Below, piece after piece: positions 3,527-56,210 of a stretch of 64,000 nt of DNA (its first letter is position 1; every line of letters begins with the position of its first letter). A model generated the notes under the pieces. It searched no databases. It was not told the origin of the DNA and saw nothing but the letters and a program-made list of their open reading frames with translations. The DNA is from a virus: IMG/VR virus record IMGVR_UViG_3300028392_000041, positions 1 to 64,000 of that record. The stretch is one strand, 5' to 3'. The position numbers and the translations under genes were made by a program.

Positions 3527-4564
3527 TTACCCCATCATGAAGTCAAGTGGAGCAGATTTATTTTGTAGTTCGTCTTCTAGTGCTTTAATTTCAGCATTCG
3601 CTTCGTTATACAGCAAATTGCCATCCAATGTTACACCACCTGGAAGTTGTAAACCACTAAACTTTTTCAGGTTGGTTCCCCACTGACGCTTGAACAACGC
3701 AGTAGTATAACGCTTGAGCCATGGTTCATTCCATACTTTAGTAAACTCAACAGGATCTAAACCACGATATGCTTCAATAATAACATAGTTACCAACATCA
3801 ATCTTTTGACCATTGAGCCAGTCAATGTCAATCTGTAATCTGTTTTCTAAACGATTGAAACGATAGATAGGTTTACCATTAAGCAACAAATCTAATGTTG
3901 CTAAGTGTTGCATAACAGTTGTGTAGTAAATCAATGAAGTACTAGACAAATCGTAAAGATCGTTTAATCTTAATTGATATTGTAAGTCAAAAATTGATTT
4001 AGAAGAAGATGTTCCTTGAAATAATGGCATAACTCTTGTTACACCATAAACTGAATCGGCGATAGGAATATATTTGTTCTCGATATCGCCAGGAGTAAAC
4101 CAATCAGTGGCAGTGCTAATTGTTCCAGTTACTGTGTTGCCATTAACATCTTTTCCAACAATAGTTTCTCCAGGAGTAAACATAATTGTCGGTCCAACTG
4201 GACGACCAGTAACAACAGGAATTAGACGAGCAACATAAAGTAAAGATTGATCAGTGTTATATGGAAGCACACCATTTTGTGAACCATACACAGTTGCAGC
4301 AACACCTGAAGTTTGACCAACAATTTTAGAATTGCCAGCAAAAGACAATCCATTATTAGATGTAATCTTCATTGTTGAAGCAGTAATCTGATGCTTTAAA
4401 TATAACTTCTCAATACCATCATAGTGATATAAACGAAAAATATCTAACGACTCGTCAATACGATCTTCTAATTGATCATCGTCTACATTTATCTCAAGCA
4501 CAGGTGCGCCAAGATTGCGTAGGCAATAATTTTTAAAGTCGGCTCTAGTTGCTGGAATCGCCAT
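3527..4564 (-). CDS. gp13: Neck protein gp13
   Basis: LRNLGAPVLEINVDDDQ, KRQWGTNLKKF, LPGGVTLDG motifs. Confidence 0.93.
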   Translation of the reverse strand: MAIPATRADFKNYCLRNLGAPVLEINVDDDQLEDRIDESLDIFRLYHYDGIEKLYLKHQITASTMKITSNNGLSFAGNSKIVGQTSGVAATVYGSQNGVLPYNTDQSLLYVARLIPVVTGRPVGPTIMFTPGETIVGKDVNGNTVTGTISTATDWFTPGDIENKYIPIADSVYGVTRVMPLFQGTSSSKSIFDLQYQLRLNDLYDLSSTSLIYYTTVMQHLATLDLLLNGKPIYRFNRLENRLQIDIDWLNGQKIDVGNYVIIEAYRGLDPVEFTKVWNEPWLKRYTTALFKRQWGTNLKKFSGLQLPGGVTLDGNLLYNEANAEIKALEDELQNKSAPLDFMMG

Positions 4565-18659: not shown

Positions 18660-18667
18660 TATTTATT
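18660..18667 (-). promoter_or_regulatory. Late promoter variant AATAAATA
   Basis: NNTAAATA overlapping the halogenase stop, upstream of the fibre gene. Confidence 0.5.
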
Positions 18668-19787
18668 ATTTAGTGTATCCAATGCCAGCTGCAATGGCAT
18701 TCCAGCTTTTATCTGGAAATAGGTTAAAACTGTACTGTACATCATTTTCGTTTATTCTATTTAATAATTTTTCTGGCATATAATTATTAAGTTGAAAATC
18801 CTTCCAGAACCCTGTGTCAGCTCTTTGACTGAGGTAGTGAAAGTACAAAAATGATAAAATATCTTCATTCAACTCTTTTACATCATTGTTTACTTTTTCT
18901 GGATTATCTCTATTCTGCACAAATAATTTAAGTGCCATAATCTGAATCCAGATTGATGTTGCTTCCAATGGTTCAATAAATCCTGAAGATAATCCAACTG
19001 CCATACAGTTGTTCACCCAAACCTGTTTATATGCGCCAGCACTAAAATTAAAAGTTCTTGGTGAAACAAAATCGTGTCCAAGATAATCTCTAATTTCTTC
19101 TGCAGCTTCCTCATCTGTTGTCATTGTTGAATCGAAAACATATCCACACCCATAACGACCTTGAACTGGAATCTTCCAGATCCAGCCATATTTCATTGCA
19201 ACAGATTCTGTATAGTCAGGAGAATTATCATTTGGTAGAAAGAAAGGTATGGCACGATTACATGGCATAGGATATTCTTCCCAATCAGACTTATATATTT
19301 CTCCAATTAACAGTCGTTTAAATCCCGAACAATCAAAAAAGAAATCGCCTGATACTGGACCAGCTGGTGTTACAAGACTGGTTATATCTTTATTATCTAG
19401 TAGTACCTTTATTACTTCATTATTAATTATTGTAACACCACGAGATACTGCTACATCTTGTAAATATTTTGCCAATAAAGAAGCATCAAAGTGTAAAGCA
19501 TATTTGTTATCCCAGAAATTATGAAAGTAATGTTCACCATCACCATTCCAGTTTGTAAACTTAATTCCTGTTTTTAATGTTGCTTTACAGTTTGAAACTA
19601 ATTCTAATTCGGTAATACCAACCTCTTCAAGATACTCCATAAAAGCAGGAGTAGTTCCTTCACCAGCACCAAGAATACCAATTTCTGAACTTGCGACTAT
19701 CGTAACTTCATCATCTGGAAAGTTTTTGTTTAAATACAATGCTGTCAACCAACCAGCAGTTCCGCCACCGAGAATGACATATTTCAT
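18666..19787 (-). CDS. Flavin-dependent (tryptophan halogenase-like) halogenase
   Basis: GGGTAG FAD motif, GAGEGT, catalytic-Lys region ATLKTGIKF, WIWKIP (WxWxIP), FIEPLEATSI. Confidence 0.88.
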   Translation of the reverse strand: MKYVILGGGTAGWLTALYLNKNFPDDEVTIVASSEIGILGAGEGTTPAFMEYLEEVGITELELVSNCKATLKTGIKFTNWNGDGEHYFHNFWDNKYALHFDASLLAKYLQDVAVSRGVTIINNEVIKVLLDNKDITSLVTPAGPVSGDFFFDCSGFKRLLIGEIYKSDWEEYPMPCNRAIPFFLPNDNSPDYTESVAMKYGWIWKIPVQGRYGCGYVFDSTMTTDEEAAEEIRDYLGHDFVSPRTFNFSAGAYKQVWVNNCMAVGLSSGFIEPLEATSIWIQIMALKLFVQNRDNPEKVNNDVKELNEDILSFLYFHYLSQRADTGFWKDFQLNNYMPEKLLNRINENDVQYSFNLFPDKSWNAIAAGIGYTK

Positions 19788-20311
19788 TTAAAGTGTGTAG
19801 AAATTGCTATCGACAATCTCATCTCTTGACTTAAATTTGATTCAACAGAATGAACAATATATCCTGGAAAAATTAATAGCATTCCTGGAACTGGAGTAAT
19901 TTTATGGTAAGGTCTATAAGACTGCCATGTTACATCTGTTCTTGCTTGTGGGTCTTGCCATAATATAGATCCTCTTGGATCATGTAGTAAAATATCACCA
20001 GAGTTTTCTGGAACTTTAACATAGTAAACAACAGCCAACATACACTCAGGGTGATGATGTGGAGAATTATTTCCTCCTGGCATCGTAGGATTTTGTCTAG
20101 CAGATAGCGTAAAATATTTTGAAAGTTTACATTCTTCTGCAACTGATTCAATGTATGGTAAAACAATATCTTTTAACTTTGGCGCAATATGAAAATAATC
20201 AGAACCCTGTGTATAGTGTGGTGCCAGCGCAAGCAATTCCTGATTCAACATACCAGAATCAGATATCACTGTTTGCCAAACAGGAGTTGTAAATAAAGTT
20301 TCTTTATTCAT
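19784..20311 (-). CDS. 2OG-Fe(II) oxygenase (TIGR02466-like); start re-assigned to MNKETLF
   Basis: LFTTPVW, HHH...AVVYYV, DPR, GMLLIFPGYIVHSV, RLSIA; ATG at 20311 overlaps the upstream stop. Confidence 0.82.
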   Translation of the reverse strand: MNKETLFTTPVWQTVISDSGMLNQELLALAPHYTQGSDYFHIAPKLKDIVLPYIESVAEECKLSKYFTLSARQNPTMPGGNNSPHHHPECMLAVVYYVKVPENSGDILLHDPRGSILWQDPQARTDVTWQSYRPYHKITPVPGMLLIFPGYIVHSVESNLSQEMRLSIAISTHFK

Positions 20312-20840
20312 AAATCGACATGGCAATTGATAATCTAAGAGTTCCGCTAAAATTTGGCTCAACTGAGTGTATCAAATAACTTGGAAATAAAATAAGCATC
20401 CCAGGTTTGGGTGTTATTCTATGATATATTCTTTGAGTTTTTCCAGTATCTTCTGTTCTGGCGTTTAAATCTGGCCAATCAGTTCCACCTCTTGGATCAT
20501 GCAGCAAAATATCTCCACAATTTGATTCTGCTTTAACATAATAAATACCAACCAATTTATGCCCATGATGGTAGTGTGGTGTATCTAATTCGTTTGGAAA
20601 TAATGGTCTTTGTGTTCCATGTATTCCTTTAGGTTTATTTCTCCAATTATACTGAACAGAAATTTCGTCACATATTTCTTTCATTTTGTATTTTAATTTT
20701 TTAATATTATCACCAGCAAGATCGAAATAATTTCCGCTGGTAAATAACATACCTTCTCGTTCAAGAGCAGTATTATCGAGTAAACCTTTTAAATCAAGAA
20801 CCCATAAAGGAGTTCCAAACATTATATTATTCTGCAGCAT
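20304..20840 (-). CDS. 2OG-Fe(II) oxygenase (TIGR02466-like)
   Basis: HYH..GIYYV, GDILLHDPRG, GMLILFPSYLIHSV, RLSIA; paralogue of the adjacent gene. Confidence 0.82.
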   Translation of the reverse strand: MLQNNIMFGTPLWVLDLKGLLDNTALEREGMLFTSGNYFDLAGDNIKKLKYKMKEICDEISVQYNWRNKPKGIHGTQRPLFPNELDTPHYHHGHKLVGIYYVKAESNCGDILLHDPRGGTDWPDLNARTEDTGKTQRIYHRITPKPGMLILFPSYLIHSVEPNFSGTLRLSIAMSIYE

Positions 20841-21519
20841 TACTTTTTTTAATCAGTTCCTGTAAATTATCAATCGCCCAATAATGATTTTCTTCAATTT
20901 CATAAATTAATTCTGAGATTGCAAAACAAACATTATATGTTTTTACTTTAGGATTAATCTTATCTATAATGTCAATGTTAGCCACTACCATTAATGGTCT
21001 TTCGCAATCCATAGAAGAAATAACTTTGGGATCTTTTATGTATTCAATTGCTAAGTTATTTACTTTATCAAGAGCTAATAATTTTTGCTCTAATACCTGT
21101 AATGGTTCGCTCTTTATAATTACCAATTCGGGTGGCATTTCATGTAGGATTACAAAATCCATATTTGGTGGACGAACAAAATAAATAAGTTTTCCACGAT
21201 TATATAGAGGACTATGTCCAGCAATTAATGATCCAGAATTTTCCATGTCTGGACATGGACAATTAAATAAATGCTCAAAGGGTAATTGTTTATATGAGTC
21301 TCCATCAATAATTCTGTTTGGAACTAAAAATGCTATCTCTACAGGTTCTTCTTCTGTTCCACGATCACCTTTTACAATGTAATCCAAAAATACACAATCT
21401 TTGTCTTCAACTTGACTTAACACATACTCTGGTGGATCGAGCACCTCAAGAGAAATGACGCATTCTAATTCTTTGGCTGCATCAATAAATTTTTGTAAAT
21501 TTGGGGTAATTGTTGCCAT
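20827..21519 (-). CDS. Hypothetical protein in the modification cluster
   Basis: 230 aa ORF tightly packed between the SPASM gene and the oxygenase; no motif recognised. Confidence 0.6.
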   Translation of the reverse strand: MATITPNLQKFIDAAKELECVISLEVLDPPEYVLSQVEDKDCVFLDYIVKGDRGTEEEPVEIAFLVPNRIIDGDSYKQLPFEHLFNCPCPDMENSGSLIAGHSPLYNRGKLIYFVRPPNMDFVILHEMPPELVIIKSEPLQVLEQKLLALDKVNNLAIEYIKDPKVISSMDCERPLMVVANIDIIDKINPKVKTYNVCFAISELIYEIEENHYWAIDNLQELIKKSNAAE

Positions 21520-21520
21520 C

Positions 21521-22969
21521 TTATGCCTCTACTTTTGATTGTCCGTATACCTGAACATCATCAATTTGAGTAACAATCTCGCTCACCACTTTAATAGGTA
21601 TAACTTTCTTTTTTGTTTTTTCTTTATGCTCGAACTGTGTTCCCCAAATATCTTGTCGTTCCAATGGAAGAACATCATTTTTAATTAGAACAGGAACATA
21701 ACCTCTAGTCATCTTTTCAAACCCTAATGCAAATAAAGCAATATTATCTGAGTATGCATTGTCGCAAGAAACTTCCCATAGTTCTCCATCAAGGAACATA
21801 CAAGAACCTTTACAAATATGTAGGACTGGACATGCTGAACATTCTTTACGATTTCTCCAATGTGTTGCAGTTTTAACAGCTACATTATCATAATCTTCTA
21901 AAGTTCCAGATAAATGACTTTCTCCATTCATACCAGTTTCAACTGGAGAAACATTTTGACAAGTCATAACATTACCACGAAGATCAATGGCTAATGTGTT
22001 TTCTTCATCCATTCCACACTTCTGACCAACAAATTTTGCGTTTCTGTGAGTAAGAACTGATGTAACAAACTGATCAACTTTTGTCGTAATCATTGTAAAA
22101 CCAATATTACCATTATTAGAGTAAATATCATTAAATGATAATTTTCTAAAATCAAAATGTTCTTGTTTTGTGTTTAATGAACTTTGGGCACCATCTGCGT
22201 CATACGCATCAACAATAGTGCCTTCGCCAAGAACAATATTTTCGTCGCCAGTAAAATTAATAAACCAATTATGTATATCTTTACGACTTTGATTTTTTGC
22301 ATTAAGCATAGAGTTAAAACTCATGCGTCCCTGTTTTTTCATAATACGATAAAAATCAAGAACTATTTTTTTCTGTTCTGGATCTTCAAATGGATCTGGA
22401 CCACGAACTGATTGTCCTGGACCATCATGACTTATGGCTACCGAAAATCCCATGTAGTACAGCCATTGACAAATTTCTTTGGTTAAAATAGAACCATTAG
22501 TTATAACACTGAATTTTGGTTCAACTTTCCAATCAGAAAATCTTTCGCGAAGTGCTTCAGCCAATGGTTTTAATGTTTTCCAATAAACAAAAGGTTCGCC
22601 ACCCCAAAATTCAATTTTAAGACCAGCTTGTTCAGAGAAATTTAAAACATCAAGTTTTTCTAAAAAAGCGTCAATATCTTTTTTAGATGTTTCTGGTGCT
22701 CTTTCCACAAATTTTTGCGAACAATAATCGCAAGAATAATTACAAGATAAACCAAGTTGAATCTTCAATAGAGTTATATCTTTAGATTTTTTTATTGGAT
22801 TAGTTTTATCAAATGGCAAAGACTCTTTTCGAGTTTCTGGTTGGCGTTGATCTTCTGGGTATTCTATAACGACACCCTCGTGATTGGTTAAAGTATTAAT
22901 CTCATTGTCGTAGAAGAAAACCTTCTTATCATTATCACCAAGTCGTTCAGCATGAATTTCAAAAATCAT
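21521..22969 (-). CDS. Radical SAM/SPASM-domain maturase
   Basis: CNYSCDYC, FWGGEP, ITNG, ISHDGP; SPASM cysteines KCG...MTC...CSACPVLHICKGSC...SC. Confidence 0.9.
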   Translation of the reverse strand: MIFEIHAERLGDNDKKVFFYDNEINTLTNHEGVVIEYPEDQRQPETRKESLPFDKTNPIKKSKDITLLKIQLGLSCNYSCDYCSQKFVERAPETSKKDIDAFLEKLDVLNFSEQAGLKIEFWGGEPFVYWKTLKPLAEALRERFSDWKVEPKFSVITNGSILTKEICQWLYYMGFSVAISHDGPGQSVRGPDPFEDPEQKKIVLDFYRIMKKQGRMSFNSMLNAKNQSRKDIHNWFINFTGDENIVLGEGTIVDAYDADGAQSSLNTKQEHFDFRKLSFNDIYSNNGNIGFTMITTKVDQFVTSVLTHRNAKFVGQKCGMDEENTLAIDLRGNVMTCQNVSPVETGMNGESHLSGTLEDYDNVAVKTATHWRNRKECSACPVLHICKGSCMFLDGELWEVSCDNAYSDNIALFALGFEKMTRGYVPVLIKNDVLPLERQDIWGTQFEHKEKTKKKVIPIKVVSEIVTQIDDVQVYGQSKVEA

Positions 22970-22993
22970 AGTATTCCCAATTTTATAGTTTAA

Positions 22994-23413
22994 TTACCAG
23001 CAAGCACAATCACAAACAAAACAATTACATTGACATTGACACGCACAATTTACCCATTGATCTTGGTTCTGCGTGCAGTTATATGTAGTGGCACAATTTG
23101 TTCCAGGCTGTAAATATGATTGTGTATCACAGTTTGCGCAATTAATCGTATTACAATTTGAACAGTTATTACATTGAGCAGTACCACCTGTTCCTGGAGC
23201 TATTCCAGTTAAACTTTCTGTACAGTTACCATTGTTACAATTACCATCAGCATTGCGTTGGTAATAATTTAACCCATGAAGACTATTATAGTCTGTTGGA
23301 TTACCCTTAGTGTTATCTTTAATCCAGTCGATGCCAGTCTGCGTGGTTGTTCCGCGACCTGTTTCGTTATTAACATCGCTAGTTGCTATTGCTCCAGATG
23401 CTGGTGTTGTCAT
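22994..23413 (-). CDS. Cys/Asn-rich protein, candidate substrate (precursor) of the adjacent radical SAM enzymes
   Basis: 139 aa with 17 Cys in the C-terminal ~80 aa, 10 of them as NC dipeptides; ends NCACQCQCNCFVCDCACW; N-terminus MTTPASGAIATSDVNNETGR resembles small phage virion-protein N-termini. Confidence 0.7.
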   Translation of the reverse strand: MTTPASGAIATSDVNNETGRGTTTQTGIDWIKDNTKGNPTDYNSLHGLNYYQRNADGNCNNGNCTESLTGIAPGTGGTAQCNNCSNCNTINCANCDTQSYLQPGTNCATTYNCTQNQDQWVNCACQCQCNCFVCDCACW

Positions 23414-23444
23414 GACTTTACCTTGATTGCCTTGTATACAGTAC

Positions 23445-23452
23445 TATTTATA
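23445..23452 (-). promoter_or_regulatory. Perfect T4 late promoter TATAAATA driving the Cys-rich gene and downstream enzymes
   Basis: Exact consensus 32 nt upstream of the ATG at 23413. Confidence 0.8.
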
Positions 23453-24974
23453 ATGCTCCAACCATAGATTTATATTCTAAAAACTTGTTAGAATTTAAGG
23501 ATGGTATATCATATTTTTTTATAGTTTCTTCTTCTGAGAGAGAGTAAATATCTTCCAAAGATATCCCAGTAGATAGGGCTGCAGGAACATAAAAGCCAGA
23601 TATCTTATTCATTGGGTTTCTGAGATCGTTAAACTTATTGGCTATATCTAAACACATACGATAGTTTAATTTTTGAGTTTTTAAATCCCAACAGTATTTT
23701 AAATCTTCTTGGAAGGTATATCCATAAACCTCTGGATTGATACTAAATTCTGAACCATATTTAGAAAGTGGATCTTCTTTTCCATAATTAAACATCATTA
23801 ATGGATAATATAAAATAGATTGTAATGGGTTATCTTCTTCTAAACTCCAAGACAAGAGTTCATTAAAATATGCAAGATTATCGTATGGGAGACCAAGGAT
23901 AAAGCCAGCTTCCATATTAACTTTATTTTCCCATTTTTCGCGAAGCCAATATAATCTATCTTTTACTTTATTTGGATTTAGTCCTTTACCAATTGCTTTA
24001 GCCGATTCTGGTTGCATTGTTTCTAAACCAAAAAAATTACCAACCAATCCCATATCCGTAAGCAAATCAGCTTGATGTGGATATTTGTTAATTAAATCAA
24101 TCCTAAGATAAGTAGAAAATTTTGGTTTAAATGGTAAGGAAGTAAATAGTTTGTGGAGTATTTCTAATTTATCATTATCATCATTAAATGTATCATCAGT
24201 AAAAAAGTAAGTGTCTGTCCCGTGAATTTCCCAAGTCTTAATTAGTTCATCTCGCACTTGTTCTAAATCGCGAACATATGTGCCTTTCTTTTTACCAGTT
24301 AGAGCATATGAACAAAATTTACATTTAAAAATACAGCCACGACCAAGTTCAATTGGTAATGCTTCACCTTTTAAAATTGGATAGTTCCACCAGCGAGTTG
24401 GAATATTTTTTACATCTGGTTCTGGAAATTTGGTAGAGTCAATAATTCTACCAAAAGAATTTAAAGATTTACCTGCCAAGTAATCGGTCAATGCAACTGT
24501 AGATGTATCAGCGTAACCAAGAACATAATGATCAATGTTACGATCTTTCATAAACCATGGGGTTCTTGCACCACCAAAAATTATTTTTGCTTGACTGTTG
24601 GAACGAACGAATTCAAATAATTGTTCTATTTCAGAATAATTTTCTGTATAATACATATCTTCAACATCATTATTACCTCTTGAATCTGCAACTCGTTCTT
24701 TAAATGTTTGATTTGGTCTCTGTCTTTGCCAAAAGAAAGTAGAAGAAAATCCAATCCAAAGAGTTTCTTTGCCAATATGTTTTTTTAAAACATTTAAAAT
24801 TTCTTCAATCGTAAATTTGTTTATGTAATCTAAAACAAATGTAGAATATCCAGCATCTTCTAAAGCTGATGCGAGTCTATATGGACCAAGAGATCTATAA
24901 ACAGAACAACGATCTTCAGAATTCCATGTTCCGCCAGATAATATAATACAGTTAGACAATATATGTCCCTTCAA
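23448..24974 (-). CDS. Radical SAM protein with a B12-binding-like N-terminal domain (class B methyltransferase-like architecture)
   Basis: LGPYRLASAL..AGY, IGFSSTF, IIFGG N-domain; ELGRGCIFKCKFC; FTDDTFND; FGLET; FILGLP. The true start may be a TTG at about 24959. Confidence 0.8.
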   Translation of the reverse strand: MKGHILSNCIILSGGTWNSEDRCSVYRSLGPYRLASALEDAGYSTFVLDYINKFTIEEILNVLKKHIGKETLWIGFSSTFFWQRQRPNQTFKERVADSRGNNDVEDMYYTENYSEIEQLFEFVRSNSQAKIIFGGARTPWFMKDRNIDHYVLGYADTSTVALTDYLAGKSLNSFGRIIDSTKFPEPDVKNIPTRWWNYPILKGEALPIELGRGCIFKCKFCSYALTGKKKGTYVRDLEQVRDELIKTWEIHGTDTYFFTDDTFNDDNDKLEILHKLFTSLPFKPKFSTYLRIDLINKYPHQADLLTDMGLVGNFFGLETMQPESAKAIGKGLNPNKVKDRLYWLREKWENKVNMEAGFILGLPYDNLAYFNELLSWSLEEDNPLQSILYYPLMMFNYGKEDPLSKYGSEFSINPEVYGYTFQEDLKYCWDLKTQKLNYRMCLDIANKFNDLRNPMNKISGFYVPAALSTGISLEDIYSLSEEETIKKYDIPSLNSNKFLEYKSMVGAL

Positions 24975-25533
24975 ATACTAAACAAATTCTTGGTATATCG
25001 CTATTGTGAATACTTACTGCATGTGGAATATCTGGAGAGTGTATAACAAGTCTACCTGTTCTTGATTTGATAGTTGTTATTTTAGATTCATCATACTCAT
25101 AATAGTGTGTATTAAATTTACCACCATTAATGAATAGTAGGTTTGCTCCATCTTCTGGCACTTGGTAATAAAAAATTGCAACGAAGTCTGGTTTCTTTGC
25201 TAAATTTTCATTTATATGAGCGTGAACCAAACCCTCACTATTCTTCATCATTTTATTACACCAAGATTTGGTGTAATTTATTCCAGACGCTTTTGGGTTT
25301 GCTATTAAAACTTTTTCAGTTATCCAGTCTACTAATTTACCTGCTCCTGGCATATTAACAATATCAGACCAGTCGTTTCCAACTGAAGTCAAAACATTTC
25401 CCTGTGCTGAGTCGTATTTAGAACCTTGTTCTCTGTTTATAACTTGTGGGAGTTCTAGTAATAGATTTATACTAGCAGATAATAATGAATTTTGATACAA
25501 CGATGTATCATCACATTGAATAATGTGTAACAT
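24952..25533 (-). CDS. 2OG-Fe(II) oxygenase-like protein
   Basis: SWCN, HAH, AIFYYQVP, GRLVIHSPDIPHAV, RICLVF. Confidence 0.72.
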   Translation of the reverse strand: MLHIIQCDDTSLYQNSLLSASINLLLELPQVINREQGSKYDSAQGNVLTSVGNDWSDIVNMPGAGKLVDWITEKVLIANPKASGINYTKSWCNKMMKNSEGLVHAHINENLAKKPDFVAIFYYQVPEDGANLLFINGGKFNTHYYEYDESKITTIKSRTGRLVIHSPDIPHAVSIHNSDIPRICLVFEGTYIV

Positions 25534-51367: not shown

Positions 51368-52078
51368 ATGTCATTACCGATGATGAAGACACCATTATAT
51401 TCTGTGAAGATTCCTTCTACAGAACAAAAAGTAACATTTAGACCATTTTTGGTCAGAGAAGAAAAAGCATTGTTGCTGGCACAGCAAAGCGAGAGTGTTG
51501 AGGTTATGACCAATACACTGAAAGAAATTATTACAAACTGCGTTAGAGAAAAAATTAATATTGATTCTTTGGCAGTTTTTGATGTTGAATATTTGTTTAC
51601 ACAAATAAGAGCAAAGTCTGTGGGTGAAACTGTTGACTTAGTGTTTAATTGTCAGCACTGCGAACAAGAAAAAAATAAAGTTAAATTGTCTATTGATTTA
51701 ACAACTATTGAAATAGTTAAAGATCCTAACCATACAAATAGAATACATCTATTTGATGAGTGTGGTGTAATGATGAGATATCCAAATCTAGAAACATTCA
51801 GAAAAGCGGATGGTAAAGAAGAAGATATTAATGCTGTTATGGAGTTGGTTATTGACTGTATTGAGTCAATCTATAATGGCGATGAAGTATTTTATGCCAA
51901 AGAACAAACTAAAAAAGAATTAGAAGATTTTGTAATGAATCTTACCAAAGAACAATTCGATAAAATTGAAGAATTTTTTGTTAGTATTCCAAAGTTTAAA
52001 AAAGTAATAGAATTTGACTGCCCAGCGTGTGGCGCACATAACGAAACAGCTCTGGAGGGAACAGCCAGTTTTTTTTAA
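51368..52078 (+). CDS. gp26: Baseplate hub assembly protein gp26
   Basis: LP....P.Y...IPS, FRPFLVREEK.LL, FDVEYLFTQIRAKSVGE, CxxC pairs, ends GTASFF. Confidence 0.88.
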   Translation: MSLPMMKTPLYSVKIPSTEQKVTFRPFLVREEKALLLAQQSESVEVMTNTLKEIITNCVREKINIDSLAVFDVEYLFTQIRAKSVGETVDLVFNCQHCEQEKNKVKLSIDLTTIEIVKDPNHTNRIHLFDECGVMMRYPNLETFRKADGKEEDINAVMELVIDCIESIYNGDEVFYAKEQTKKELEDFVMNLTKEQFDKIEEFFVSIPKFKKVIEFDCPACGAHNETALEGTASFF

Positions 52079-52257
52079 TAAATCTCAGTCATGAGTCGTT
52101 GGCCAATTACTATAAAACCAACTTCGCTCTGATGCAATATCACAAATATTCTCTGACTGAGATTGAAGATATGATTCCTTTCGAAAGAGAGATCTATGTT
52201 GCTATGCTGGTTGAATTCTTACAAGAAGAAAAACAAAGATTAGAGAGAAACAAGTAA
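52069..52257 (+). CDS. gp51: gp51-like baseplate hub assembly catalyst, not in the ORF track; probably reached by a -1 frameshift from gp26
   Basis: The -1 frame reads LINLSHESLANYYKTNFALMQYHKYSLTEIEDMIPFEREIYVAMLVEFLQEEKQRLERNK*; no ATG precedes the conserved part. Confidence 0.8.
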   Translation, partial: FFLINLSHESLANYYKTNFALMQYHKYSLTEIEDMIPFEREIYVAMLVEFLQEEKQRLERNK

Positions 52258-52258
52258 A

Positions 52259-53839
52259 ATGACAATGCAAGAACTTCTTAAGTTGCAAGCTGCGATGACA
52301 GAGAAAAACACTCTGTCCATCAATTTAAACACGCATGCAGCAAACGATCTAAAGGTTGATGTTAAGAAGTTATCTGAAGCGCAGGTCAAAGCAGCAAATG
52401 ATGAAGAATACAAAAAGAAACGCGAAGAGCAAGTAACTGATAGTCTAAAGCAATTAAATGCGACAATTAAAGAAGCAATCAAAAATGGTCTTGGCGCAGC
52501 AACTGCATCAAGAATTGGTGAAAATGATGAATCTAGACAAAATGTCGCTGGAGCAAATAGTAAATTAAGAGAATTAATGCTTGGTGGTAAAAAAGGCGAC
52601 GAACAAGTACAAAGTATAACTGGTATTCGTGGTGCAATTGATAAGTGGCTTGGTAAAAGAGAAGAAAAAGCAGCACTTAAACAAGAGAAAAAAGAATTCG
52701 TTCAAGGTGCTCTTGGTAATGATAAGCGAGCAATTGCGTTAAAGAATCTAAAAGGCGAAGATTATGCTAAGGCTGACGCTGAGAAGAGATTCGAAGAAAT
52801 TAAAGCAAAAGAAAAAGAAATAGCAGAAGCACAAAGAAGAGTTGATGCTTCTAAAGCAGCTGGATATGCTCCAAAGAAAAAAGATCTAGAAGCAGTGGAC
52901 AAGGGAACAAAAGAACTTGCCACTATGGATCCAAGAATGAAGTCAACTCTAACTAGAACTGCTCAAGAAGAAGCGCAAGAGTTTGATAAGAAAGCGAAAT
53001 TAGATACAGTAAAAGCACAAGGTGACGAAGTAACAATCGAGCGTGGTATTGGCAAGTCATTAATAGACTCGCTTGATGTTCAGAAACAACAGCTCGCAGC
53101 ATTACAACAACTTGTTGAACTTGGTGGTTCTGGTGGAGGAAGTGGTAGTGCTTCTTCTGTTGCTGCAGATTTAGCAGAAGCTGCTGTAGACAGTGCTGGT
53201 AATGGTAAAGGTGGCAAAGGTAAAATGCTTGGTAAGGCAGGTAAATTTTTGGCCAGAAATGCTGGTAAGATAGGTGCTATCGGAGCAGTTGGTATGGGTG
53301 CTTATGAAGCATATAGTGGGTATAATGATGCTGAGGAAGCAGTTCAGCGTGGTGAAATAACCAAAGAAGAAGGACAGGTTAAAAAAGGTGAGGCAGTTGG
53401 AGGTGGTGTTGGTGGCGCAGGTGGTGCACTTGCTGGTGCTGCTGCAGGTGCTGCAATTGGTTCTGTCGTTCCTGTGGTTGGAACTGCCATCGGTGGTTTA
53501 ATCGGTGGTGCTCTAGGATATTATGGTGGTTCAAAAGTTGGTACTGCTGTTGGTGGCGCAGGTGTTAAAGCAGCACAAGGATTCCAAGCTGGAGATACAG
53601 TTGCTTATGATGAGATGGGTAATCCTATTGGATCTGCTCCTACATCCTCGGAGAAAATAGAAACTGGTTCTAAAACAAATGAATCATTAAAAGTTAAAAC
53701 AAGCTCTGCTCCAACTGTTGTTAATGCTCCAACAACAATTAATAATAACGGTAGTAAGGGTGGTTCAGTTGACATTAGATCACCACTCCGTAATCAAGAA
53801 TCAAGCGTAAATAGTTACATTTCCAATCGCTACGCATAA
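52259..53839 (+). CDS. Tape-measure/baseplate hub gp29-like protein
   Basis: 526 aa: long coiled coil, Gly-zipper hydrophobic segment, VVNAPTTINN C-terminus; follows gp26/gp51. Confidence 0.6.
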   Translation: MTMQELLKLQAAMTEKNTLSINLNTHAANDLKVDVKKLSEAQVKAANDEEYKKKREEQVTDSLKQLNATIKEAIKNGLGAATASRIGENDESRQNVAGANSKLRELMLGGKKGDEQVQSITGIRGAIDKWLGKREEKAALKQEKKEFVQGALGNDKRAIALKNLKGEDYAKADAEKRFEEIKAKEKEIAEAQRRVDASKAAGYAPKKKDLEAVDKGTKELATMDPRMKSTLTRTAQEEAQEFDKKAKLDTVKAQGDEVTIERGIGKSLIDSLDVQKQQLAALQQLVELGGSGGGSGSASSVAADLAEAAVDSAGNGKGGKGKMLGKAGKFLARNAGKIGAIGAVGMGAYEAYSGYNDAEEAVQRGEITKEEGQVKKGEAVGGGVGGAGGALAGAAAGAAIGSVVPVVGTAIGGLIGGALGYYGGSKVGTAVGGAGVKAAQGFQAGDTVAYDEMGNPIGSAPTSSEKIETGSKTNESLKVKTSSAPTVVNAPTTINNNGSKGGSVDIRSPLRNQESSVNSYISNRYA

Positions 53840-53865
53840 AAAAAGGGATCCGAAGATCCCTTTTT
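53838..53865. terminator. Bidirectional rho-independent terminator
   Basis: A-run, GGGATC-CGAA-GATCCC, T-run (cUUCGg loop on the minus strand) between convergent genes. Confidence 0.9.
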
Positions 53866-53868
53866 CAT

Positions 53869-53940
53869 TTACTTGTTCATTACATACATTGTAACTTCGA
53901 ACCCAAATCTCATTTCTGTAGCAGCTGGTTTAGTCCACAT
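53869..53940 (-). CDS. pqqA: Pyrroloquinoline quinone precursor peptide PqqA (23 aa, MWTKPAATEMRFGFEVTMYVMNK)
   Basis: Translated by hand; W.KP...R.GFEVTMY with the invariant E-x-x-x-Y; GGAG SD 6 nt upstream; terminator immediately downstream. Confidence 0.93.
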   Translation of the reverse strand: MWTKPAATEMRFGFEVTMYVMNK

Positions 53941-54039
53941 AACAATCTCCAAAAGATTGACAGCAAATCCTGTCACATTTACTTATAATATAAGAGCAGG
54001 ATTTGCCTAAGTGAATCTATTAAACTCTACTAATGAAAA

Positions 54040-54969
54040 TTATGCTTCGTCAGCGATTTTCTGGAAGTAAGACATGACATCTTCGTCATCGTCATTAATC
54101 TCAGGTGCTTTAGAAACTGTTACTGGCTTAGATGCTACAGTAGTGGCAGTTGACTTTGGAGCAACATAATCATCATCTTCAGACAAGGCTGCAGCTGACT
54201 TAATAGGTGTTCCTTCACCATCTAACACATCTGACAGTTTCTTAGTCAGTTCTTCAAAAGATTTGAAGTTTTTACGATCTAAGAACTCAGACAACTTGTA
54301 AGATTTGTTTAGAATCTCAACCATCTTTTCTTCATCACCAGATGCCAACTCAGTTGGATCCATAAAAGTGGATTGGTCATAATTAGCATAACCATCTACC
54401 TTACGCATACGCAACTTAAAGTCTGCGCCTTCGAATGGATCGAAGACATTAACTGGCTTCTCATCTTCAAAAGTCGGACGAGCTTTATCCATGATTTTAT
54501 CAAAGATTTTCTTACCAAACTTAAACAAGCGAACTTGTCCTTCATTCTCTGGATGCTTTGGATCAGAAACGATCAAAACATTACAGATGTAAGATAACTT
54601 ACGCTTTTGTTTACGAGCAATTTCCTTGTTGGCATCAGAACCAGAATTCCACAATTTAGAATTCAATTCACCGACAGGATCTTTCTCACCAAGAGTGGTA
54701 AGAGAGTTCTCGATATACCACTTACCAGTTGGACCCTGGAAGGAGTGGTTAAAGATACGAACCCATGGGAGTTCGTCACCTTCTACGCGAGGTAGAAAAC
54801 GCAGTGTGGCTGTACCATTACCAGCCTTATCGGCTTCTAGTTTCCACATTCTGTCGTCTTGGTAGGATTTTTTGCCACCGCCAGATTCGGGGTTAGCAAT
54901 TTTTTCGAATTCGGAAGTGATTTTACCGAAATCTGTGTTACGCATTTTGCGAAGTGCTTGAATGTCCAT
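54040..54969 (-). CDS. gp32: Single-stranded DNA-binding protein
   Basis: DDRMWK, GNG.A.LRFLP, WYIENS, FKFGKKIFDKI, NYDQS, acidic C-terminus. Confidence 0.96.
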   Translation of the reverse strand: MDIQALRKMRNTDFGKITSEFEKIANPESGGGKKSYQDDRMWKLEADKAGNGTATLRFLPRVEGDELPWVRIFNHSFQGPTGKWYIENSLTTLGEKDPVGELNSKLWNSGSDANKEIARKQKRKLSYICNVLIVSDPKHPENEGQVRLFKFGKKIFDKIMDKARPTFEDEKPVNVFDPFEGADFKLRMRKVDGYANYDQSTFMDPTELASGDEEKMVEILNKSYKLSEFLDRKNFKSFEELTKKLSDVLDGEGTPIKSAAALSEDDDYVAPKSTATTVASKPVTVSKAPEINDDDEDVMSYFQKIADEA

Positions 54970-54992
54970 CGTATTTCCTTTGTATAAATGTA

Positions 54993-55196
54993 TTAATATG
55001 TTTTTGTATTAGTATTATCGTCTTCATCGTATGTTTCAAAATCATAATCTAAGTCTTGCTCATCATAATATTCTTCAACATAACTATTTAGTACTTTCAT
55101 ACCTTTACCTTTTTGGTTCTTGGAATGTTTAGTTTTTTTAAACTTACCAGTAACCTCTACTTCATCTTCGAAGTGAAGATCTATCTTGCGATTCAT
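54993..55196 (-). CDS. Hypothetical protein (basic N-half, acidic C-half)
   Basis: 67 aa ORF packed between gp59 and gp32. Confidence 0.55.
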   Translation of the reverse strand: MNRKIDLHFEDEVEVTGKFKKTKHSKNQKGKGMKVLNSYVEEYYDEQDLDYDFETYDEDDNTNTKTY

Positions 55197-55197
55197 A

Positions 55198-55809
55198 TCA
55201 GTGCAACTCTAAAATTTCCTGTTTAAAATTCTCATAGACACGCAAGAGTCGTTCGGTATTAAACTTCACGAAACCCTTACATTTATCTATTCTACGGCAT
55301 TCTTCTCCCAAAAGCAAATTTAATTGCGAAGGTATTCTTGCAATGTAATTCGTATAAGAATCTAAAATTACCATAGTTTCTATTGTGATATAACCACCGA
55401 GATATAATTTAAATAACTCAGGGAAATCACTACCACTCTTTTCATATAGATGATTCTCAGATAAACCCTCTTTCTCTAGATGCAAGCAGATTGCATGTAA
55501 GTCGTTTTCAAAAACTTGTGACATACTTTCTTTTCGTTTATTCCAAGTACTTAAATTACGCTCACCCTCTCCTGGGTCATAGACAACTTCATTATTTCCG
55601 TAAGCAAAATTAGCAACAAAATATTGAATCACATCCCTTTCGGTTGGAAACTTTCTTGCCAATTTTTCAAAGATAAACCTATCATTACGATTATAAAAAG
55701 TGTCTCGAGCACCTTTTACATGACCACGATTGTTAAACACATTATACGCATTCGTAGTAAAGTGTAACTTCACAGCCATATAAAGTTTCCATACCTTATA
55801 TCCGTCCAC
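55198..55809 (-). CDS. gp59: Helicase loader gp59-like
   Basis: Y..YMAVKLHFT, F..RND..FEKLA, ITIETMVILD; synteny 33-59-32. Confidence 0.85.
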   Translation of the reverse strand: MDGYKVWKLYMAVKLHFTTNAYNVFNNRGHVKGARDTFYNRNDRFIFEKLARKFPTERDVIQYFVANFAYGNNEVVYDPGEGERNLSTWNKRKESMSQVFENDLHAICLHLEKEGLSENHLYEKSGSDFPELFKLYLGGYITIETMVILDSYTNYIARIPSQLNLLLGEECRRIDKCKGFVKFNTERLLRVYENFKQEILELH

Positions 55810-56008
55810 GATTTAATTTCCTACAATCAGTTCTCACTTCAATTGGGAAATCTGGAGAGATTTCCGCCAATCTACAATCATAAACTACTACGCCATGTTT
55901 AGGGATTGCTAAGAACATAGTTCCCCAAACCAGCGTAAAAGCAAAAATAACAGCAAGCGTCAATTTCAAATTAAACATCAAGTTGTGCCGTTTTCGGTAG
56001 GTGTCCAC
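55796..56008 (-). CDS. Small membrane protein
   Basis: One transmembrane helix, then YDCRLAEISPDFP..V..DCRK. Confidence 0.55.
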   Translation of the reverse strand: MDTYRKRHNLMFNLKLTLAVIFAFTLVWGTMFLAIPKHGVVVYDCRLAEISPDFPIEVRTDCRKLNRGRI

Positions 56009-56210
56009 TCTGTTGAAAATCCATCTTCATTTTTTCTTTGAGGGACTTGTTAATCAAAGATTTAATTTCTTCAGGGTCAATGAAGTTTTCCTTACAATAT
56101 TCCAAGATAGCATCGACATGGGTACACTTCTTGTCTCTTGCCAATTGTTCTATATAAAGAGAAAACGACTTTGAATCTTCAAATACTTTTAAGTTTGTTG
56201 ATGTAGGCAT
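55971..56210 (-). CDS. gp33: Late transcription co-activator gp33
   Basis: FSLYIEQ, HVDAILEYC.EN.ID, LINKSLKEK; synteny. Confidence 0.85.
   Translation of the reverse strand: MPTSTNLKVFEDSKSFSLYIEQLARDKKCTHVDAILEYCKENFIDPEEIKSLINKSLKEKMKMDFQQSGHLPKTAQLDV

Follow-up and report, generated by a model that had tools for sequence, protein, structure and literature searches.

The question raised by this locus is whether a frame of only 23 codons, lying behind the gene of the single-stranded-DNA-binding protein gp32 in a T4-like phage, encodes a genuine PqqA and, if so, what such a phage would do with the precursor peptide of PQQ alone. The window, that is, the whole stretch of DNA that was analysed, comprises the first 64 kb of a 111,827-bp IMG/VR virus record with a G+C content of 37.6% and a completeness of 69% (CheckV), and this source stretch was found in freshwater metagenomes. 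In PQQ biosynthesis, PqqE together with PqqD cross-links a Glu and a Tyr of PqqA, after which trimming, PqqB and PqqC finish the cofactor, with one PqqA being used per PQQ. In a first-pass annotation made from the sequence alone, the frame had been proposed as an unannotated auxiliary metabolic gene that supplies this consumed precursor in a methylotrophic betaproteobacterial host.

The pqqA frame and its phage setting

The coding sequence occupies positions 53869..53940 of the minus strand, stop codon included, running from ATG TGG ACT AAA (53940 downwards) to AAC AAG TAA (53869), and its 23 codons plus TAA give the 23-aa peptide MWTKPAATEMRFGFEVTMYVMNK. When profile models were run against this 23-mer, both curated ones were passed at about twice their cut-offs, namely Pfam PF08042 (42.4 bits, cut-off 21.1, E 6e-11) and the NCBIfam equivalog TIGR02107 (40.4 bits, cut-off 20), so the frame is not due to chance and is a genuine member of the PqqA family; it also matches identical bacterial and viral copies. 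The 23-aa frame reported in the first-pass annotation was thus confirmed, while its span of 53869-53950 was right only in part, as the frame ends at 53940 and the positions up to 53950 take in the Shine-Dalgarno sequence. Moreover, Glu15 and Tyr19 are present as E15-V-T-M-Y19, the E-x-x-x-Y pair whose two residues are cross-linked when PQQ is made, the N-terminus (MWTKP) shows the W-x-x-P leader, which has a role in PqqD binding, and the length falls within the approximately 20-40 aa expected of PqqA. Linkage to pqqBCDE, another usual trait of PqqA, is absent here, and most of the bacterial copies fetched are likewise unlinked. In a six-frame profile search of the 111,827-bp record, PqqA matches appeared at this single place. 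A 35-aa version starting from GTG 53976 was dropped, since it has no Shine-Dalgarno sequence, its 12 additional residues are absent from the homologues, which are 23-25 aa long, and the HMM match starts at the ATG.

The upstream neighbour on the same strand is gp32 (54969..54040, minus strand), identified by the Pfam gp32 model (146 bits) and the PHROG SSB profile (356 bits), and the spacer between both genes is 99 nt long, which bears out the earlier placement right behind gp32. Further upstream, and likewise on the minus strand, the genes of a helicase loader (gp59-like, 55198-55809) and of a late-transcription factor (gp33-like, 55971-56210) complete a gp33-gp59-gp32 unit in the T4 order and on the same strand as pqqA. 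On the convergent side lie the gene of a baseplate-hub protein and a tape-measure-like gene whose end is at 53839. With these flanks, which are common to phage relatives, the locus is a bona fide phage locus, and a 326-nt contig, which may derive from the source sample, bridges gp32, pqqA and the terminator with zero mismatches.

Within the 112-kb record (69% complete), no match was found by the models of PqqB, PqqC, PqqD, PqqE, the PQQ_2 repeat and PQQ alcohol dehydrogenase, so the earlier statement that the window has no other pqq gene holds by profile searches beyond its 64 kb, for the whole record. Elsewhere in the window, a cluster among tail-fibre genes (18666-25533) encodes two radical SAM proteins, one a peptide maturase of the SPASM type and the other B12-binding, whose genes lie at 21521-24974, along with a tryptophan halogenase, three 2OG-Fe(II) oxygenases and a small protein. 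The maturase (21521-22969) resembles geopeptide, PapB and QhpD-type rSAM/SPASM enzymes, a class that includes PqqE, and might be imagined to turn PqqA into a product other than PQQ. However, it lies 31 kb from pqqA among tail-fibre genes, the PqqE model (TIGR02109) finds nothing in the record at an E-value of 0.01, and the annotation of the few kb around pqqA in the 35-44-kb methylophages lists no radical SAM gene, all of which makes this substrate role highly improbable. The lack of a TIGR02109 match in the record also excluded the phage rSAM/SPASM protein as a PqqE.

Regarding expression signals, the good Shine-Dalgarno sequence claimed earlier was recovered as GGAG at 53950..53947 (minus strand), 6 nt upstream of the ATG as read from the sequence, and other phage pqqA copies have GGAG- or AGGA-type sites at a like distance from the start. 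The spacer towards gp32 holds a sigma-70-like promoter candidate, TTCACT-17-TATATT (53987..54015, minus strand), with only 9 of 12 consensus matches, and a perfect 10-bp inverted repeat, GCAAATCCTG / CAGGATTTGC (53963..54006, minus strand), whose 24-nt loop contains the -10 candidate. It also holds a smaller hairpin of 6 bp followed by the U-run AUCUUUU (53958-53975, minus strand), which overlaps the inverted repeat just 5′ of the Shine-Dalgarno sequence. The two leader hairpins (53958-54006, minus strand) are mutually exclusive, and the 6-bp stem with its U-run abuts the Shine-Dalgarno sequence. The fold of 53835-54042 reached -59.3 kcal/mol (z -5.2), and the inverted repeat/hairpin structure is kept in the related contig L252. 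These hairpins resemble a possible attenuator, known from two sequences, too few for covariation, and Rfam searches of 53600-54300 gave sub-threshold chance matches only.

Host assignment and spread among viruses

The host link was examined with a back-translated pattern for the core EMRFGFEVTMY, searched over the GTDB species genomes. At least 120 stretches were obtained, nearly all titled Methylophilaceae, with Methylotenera, Methylophilus, Methylobacillus, Methylovorus, Ca. Methylopumilus and OM43 among the matches listed. Full identity to the phage peptide (23/23 residues) was found in at least 29 bacterial and at least 20 other viral copies, the bacterial ones coming, among the matches listed, from Methylotenera, Methylophilus, Methylobacillus, Ca. 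Methylopumilus and other Methylophilaceae MAGs. The likeness to Methylophilaceae PqqA put forward in the first-pass annotation is therefore stronger than had been stated, being identity over 23 residues, and these same copies give the proposed methylotrophic betaproteobacterial host a good foundation at the level of the family. Since at least four genera share the identical peptide, the host, predicted from the sequence to be a member of the Methylophilaceae, is called at the family level only; the low G+C content hints at a planktonic, Methylopumilus-like host. Two contigs of a MAG titled Acidovorax caeni (L202 and L222) also carry a Methylophilaceae-type pqqA peptide identical to that of the window, probably owing to a binning error.

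Two of the identical bacterial copies, one from Methylophilus and one from Methylotenera (L133 and L159), adjoin pqqB-E. Because of the identity to these operon-linked peptides, the phage product would be the very substrate of the host PqqD/E, and its conversion to PQQ by host enzymes is expected. The same identity, which includes the cross-linked Glu and Tyr, makes it very unlikely that the peptide or its mRNA acts as a decoy or regulator, titrating PqqD/PqqE or a regulator and so altering host PQQ synthesis instead of feeding it, since these are positions at which an inhibitor should deviate from the substrate; nothing direct speaks for such a role, the leader hairpins being a possible pointer at most.

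Most bacterial copies stand apart from the operon, as pqqB-E were nearby in 27 of the 120 loci listed and no pqqB was nearby in the other 93. Four host genomes that were checked had 1-7 pqqA matches each, with PqqE above the cut-off in three of them, the fourth being a 0.9-Mb single-cell assembly. In the Methylophilaceae, one pqqBCDEFG set has been described alongside 3-12 copies of pqqA (Beck et al. 2014, PMC4109929). Such a ratio points to precursor dosage as a lever, and in a methanol-grown PQQ producer two of five pqqA copies had their transcript maxima at the steepest rise of the PQQ synthesis rate (PMC9851590). The phage gene resembles the orphan pqqA genes of the Methylophilaceae (PMC4109929) in encoding an identical or near-identical 23-aa peptide away from pqqBCDEFG, while it differs from them in being located on a phage genome, behind gp32 and with signals of a phage context, and in having DNA closer to viral copies. 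In particular, the best DNA identity to a bacterial copy among the matches listed was 66/72, without extension beyond the frame, while the nearest viral copies reached 70, 68 and 67 of 72, above that bacterial maximum. These values also bear on the idea that pqqA serves as a recombination or attachment sequence, through which the phage could integrate into, or exchange DNA with, the many dispersed pqqA copies of its host. The attachment site was rejected, as the homology is confined to the frame and does not exceed 92%, and the recombination reading at large has a nearly negligible probability, given that the frame is complete with its own Shine-Dalgarno sequence in every phage and that T4-like phages are lytic as a rule.

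As for other phages, 12 matches were obtained when 50,697 phage records were searched with the peptide by tblastn. Nine came from phages isolated on OM43 or LD28 (Venkman, P19250A, MEP301, MEP401, MEP402 and four Melnitz variants), one was a freshwater-spring podovirus with a 100% identical peptide, and two were mislabelled Acinetobacter contigs with a full pqq operon, which act as a positive control. The latter (CAKLQF020000010.1 and CAKLQH020000055.1, 'Acinetobacter phage MD-2021a'; L010) carry ppk and the complete pqqABCDE operon and look like bacterial chromosome, not phage. In every phage with a match, pqqA was complete and had a Shine-Dalgarno sequence. The cultured methylophages share with the window an intact gene (77-96% peptide identity for Venkman, P19250A, MEP301, MEP401/402 and Melnitz) and the absence of other annotated pqq genes in the few-kb flanks; unlike it, they belong to different virus families and carry pqqA at different genomic positions, antisense to its neighbours in Venkman and MW202481 and beside tRNA-Leu in Melnitz. 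Nothing is annotated at the pqqA frame in the records of Venkman, P19250A, MEP301 and MEP402, and a hypothetical protein is called on the opposite strand in those of Melnitz (MZ577095-98) and in MW202481 (L004, approximately 3995-4069; L005, 2119-2190). Phage-borne pqqA goes unmentioned in the papers that describe the isolation of Venkman, MEP301, MEP401/402 and Melnitz. Thus, ORF-length cut-offs hide a widespread gene, which the GenBank records of the methylophage isolates examined leave unannotated, and these 23 codons are a cheap and specific marker for matching uncultured phages with their methylotroph hosts.

Among the IMG/VR contigs, at least 120 had the EMRFGFEVTMY core and at least another 120 a Leu-type core ([D/E]-L-R-F/L-G-F-E), while the Pseudomonas/Acinetobacter-type core DLRIGFEVTMY was found in none. 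All of the at least 240 loci listed show the W-x-x-P leader, a stop codon 4-5 codons past the Tyr and, where the contig allows, a start codon; the E-x-x-x-Y motif was fixed by the search patterns, and its presence in the retrieved copies is not independent evidence. No pqqB-E genes appeared in the flanks of the 240 loci listed, compared with 27 of the 120 bacterial loci listed. Clustering of the flanks gave at least 15 contexts, the Venkman/P19250A-like group being the largest, and the window paired only with contig L071.

A total of 115 distinct viral coding sequences encoded 45 peptides. The search patterns fixed 10-11 codons and partly bias the conservation statistics, and among the positions outside them W2, T3, P5, N22, K/R23 and the stop were invariant or nearly so, W2 and P5 being fully invariant across the 115 sequences. 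Moreover, the similarity to the cassette of the window stopped 10-14 nt outside the frame in all copies except L071. Because variable coding sequences keep few peptides and the homology ends near the edges of the frame, purifying selection appears to act on the PqqA peptide and not on hitch-hiking DNA.

The viral contigs with Leu in place of Met before Arg (L331-L450, at least 120, [D/E]LRFGFE[V/I]TMY...) have a core that was found in only 1 of 361 Methylophilaceae genomes. Some of their ends are of the Methylophilaceae type (MWTKPSATE...VMNK), while others (MKWETP...INNR, ...FKQV) resemble other host groups, so that these genes may be either phage-specific alleles or genes of phages infecting other PQQ producers.

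An accessory cassette at the gp32 terminator

The relatives of the window were fetched through gp32, giving 80 viral contigs with 52-98% identity in this protein, only two of which had a pqqA-like frame within 4 kb; no intron-split or partial pqqA was found among the 80. By alignment, pqqA belongs to a unit of approximately 165 bp (53867..54036, minus strand, boundaries approximate) which comprises the promoter candidate, the hairpins, the Shine-Dalgarno sequence and the gene. The window and L252 have this cassette, whereas L251 and L253 lack it. In L252 (91% gp32 identity), the whole unit is kept, and pqqA differs from that of the window by two synonymous and no replacement changes. In L251, the closest relative (98% gp32 identity), the gp32 stop is followed by about 15 unrelated bases and then by the same terminator hairpin, the cassette being cleanly missing, and pqqA was found neither at the gp32 site nor elsewhere within the 64.6 kb of its record that were covered. 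Furthermore, the records of five relatives, one of them complete by its terminal repeats at 174 kb, gave zero PqqA matches.

The terminator bears on another claim of the first-pass annotation, according to which pqqA has one of its own. An intrinsic terminator hairpin does exist at 53840..53865 (11-bp stem, A-run before and T-run after), but it is bidirectional, being common to the tape-measure-like gene that runs convergently (52259..53839) and to the gp32-pqqA unit, and it is not pqqA's own because the pqqA-less L251 has the same hairpin directly behind gp32. From these comparisons, the cassette was inserted between gp32 and a pre-existing terminator. Moreover, pqqA is dispensable in this phage lineage, since both the relative with 98% gp32 identity and the complete 174-kb relative lack it.

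Presence and absence of the cassette among very close relatives, at an intergenic gap before a terminator where insertions are harmless, is what would be seen if pqqA were a neutral passenger, that is, recent and selectively irrelevant host DNA at a permissive site, to be lost again. Nevertheless, this was considered quite unlikely, as an intact gene is carried by all methylophage isolates that were found and by at least 240 viral contigs, in at least 15 contexts, the viral copies differ by many synonymous and few replacement changes, and the end of the homology some 10-14 nt outside the frame suggests that each lineage keeps the gene alone with its own signals. A further reading is that the cassette, besides being a helper gene, could be a mobile unit shuttled by phages, which would have seeded Methylophilaceae chromosomes with their unusual number of dispersed orphan pqqA copies (3-12). 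The pointers to this unlikely reading, none of them decisive, are the clean 165-bp indel, the DNA being closer to viral copies, and the 93 of 120 listed bacterial copies that stand alone; if it were true, presence or absence of the cassette between near-identical T4-like phages (98% gp32 identity) would mark adaptation to hosts or conditions in which the PqqA supply limits the energy yield.

A second and consistent position of pqqA, different from that of the window, was observed in a distant T4-like clade (gp32 45-65% identical), where the gene lies 2-3.5 kb upstream of the gp59-gp32 pair and on the same strand (L357, L363, L369, L382, L394, L396, L402, L422, L429, L448 and L329).

Proposed role during infection

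The most plausible reading, to which a good deal of confidence was given, is that a T4-like phage captured a stand-alone pqqA from its Methylophilaceae host and uses it to supply the consumed substrate of PQQ, sustaining methanol oxidation. During infection, pqqA would be transcribed from its own promoter candidate or by read-through from gp33-gp59-gp32, the host PqqD/PqqE would take the phage peptide and cross-link Glu15 to Tyr19, and the host protease, PqqB and PqqC would complete PQQ. If the phage shuts down host transcription, the supply from the host pqqA genes would be lost, and carrying pqqA alone would restore it at minimal genomic cost, the phage providing only the consumable and relying on the longer-lived host enzymes. 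In this way, the PQQ-dependent methanol dehydrogenase (XoxF/MxaF), and hence the energy supply, may be kept running until lysis. The auxiliary-gene role first suggested for the frame gains support from four observations, in that the record contains no other pqq gene, intact pqqA recurs in methylophages that are unrelated, the peptide is under apparent purifying selection and hosts have 3-12 copies per pqqBCDEFG set; expression, processing and benefit to the phage are inferred. PQQ is, however, a stable and tightly bound cofactor, so that a need for new synthesis within the few hours of an infection is not evident.

Three lake metatranscriptome runs and one DNA run were compared with positions 52000-56000. 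The RNA-library contigs over 53869-53941 had 6-7 mismatches and unlike flanks, and therefore represent other pqqA genes; the exact-match RNA-library contigs of the three runs covered the neighbouring gene only, and none was specific to the phage cassette.

The arrangement is analogous, though not homologous, to that of cyanophage psbA (the D1 protein), in which the phage carries only the component that is consumed or has the fastest turnover and leaves the rest to the host. For psbA, expression and contribution to phage yield have been shown experimentally; unlike it, PqqA is a substrate and not a protein subunit, and its role here is a predicted one. The Methylophilaceae (OM43, LD28/Methylopumilus and Methylotenera) are major methanol consumers of lakes and coastal seas, so if the phage gene keeps the PQQ-dependent methanol dehydrogenase supplied, viral infection would be tied to the flux of C1 carbon.

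A phage-encoded pqqA as a helper gene has been known since 2020, when PqqA was described in T4-like Methylophilaceae phages of Lake Baikal (VP_266 with VP_139) and proposed as an auxiliary gene for methanol oxidation (Coutinho et al. 2020, Microbiome 8:163, PMC7678222), and the present locus is a further, confirmatory case. Like the Baikal phages, the phage of the window is of freshwater origin, T4-like, low in G+C (35% in Baikal, 37.6% here) and predicted to infect Methylophilaceae, with a stand-alone PqqA and radical SAM genes elsewhere in the genome. Unlike it, those phages encode a methanol dehydrogenase, none being found in the 112 kb analysed here, a comparison made by description only. 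What this locus adds is small, namely the anatomy of the cassette and its clean presence or absence at the gp32 terminator as a polymorphism among relatives.
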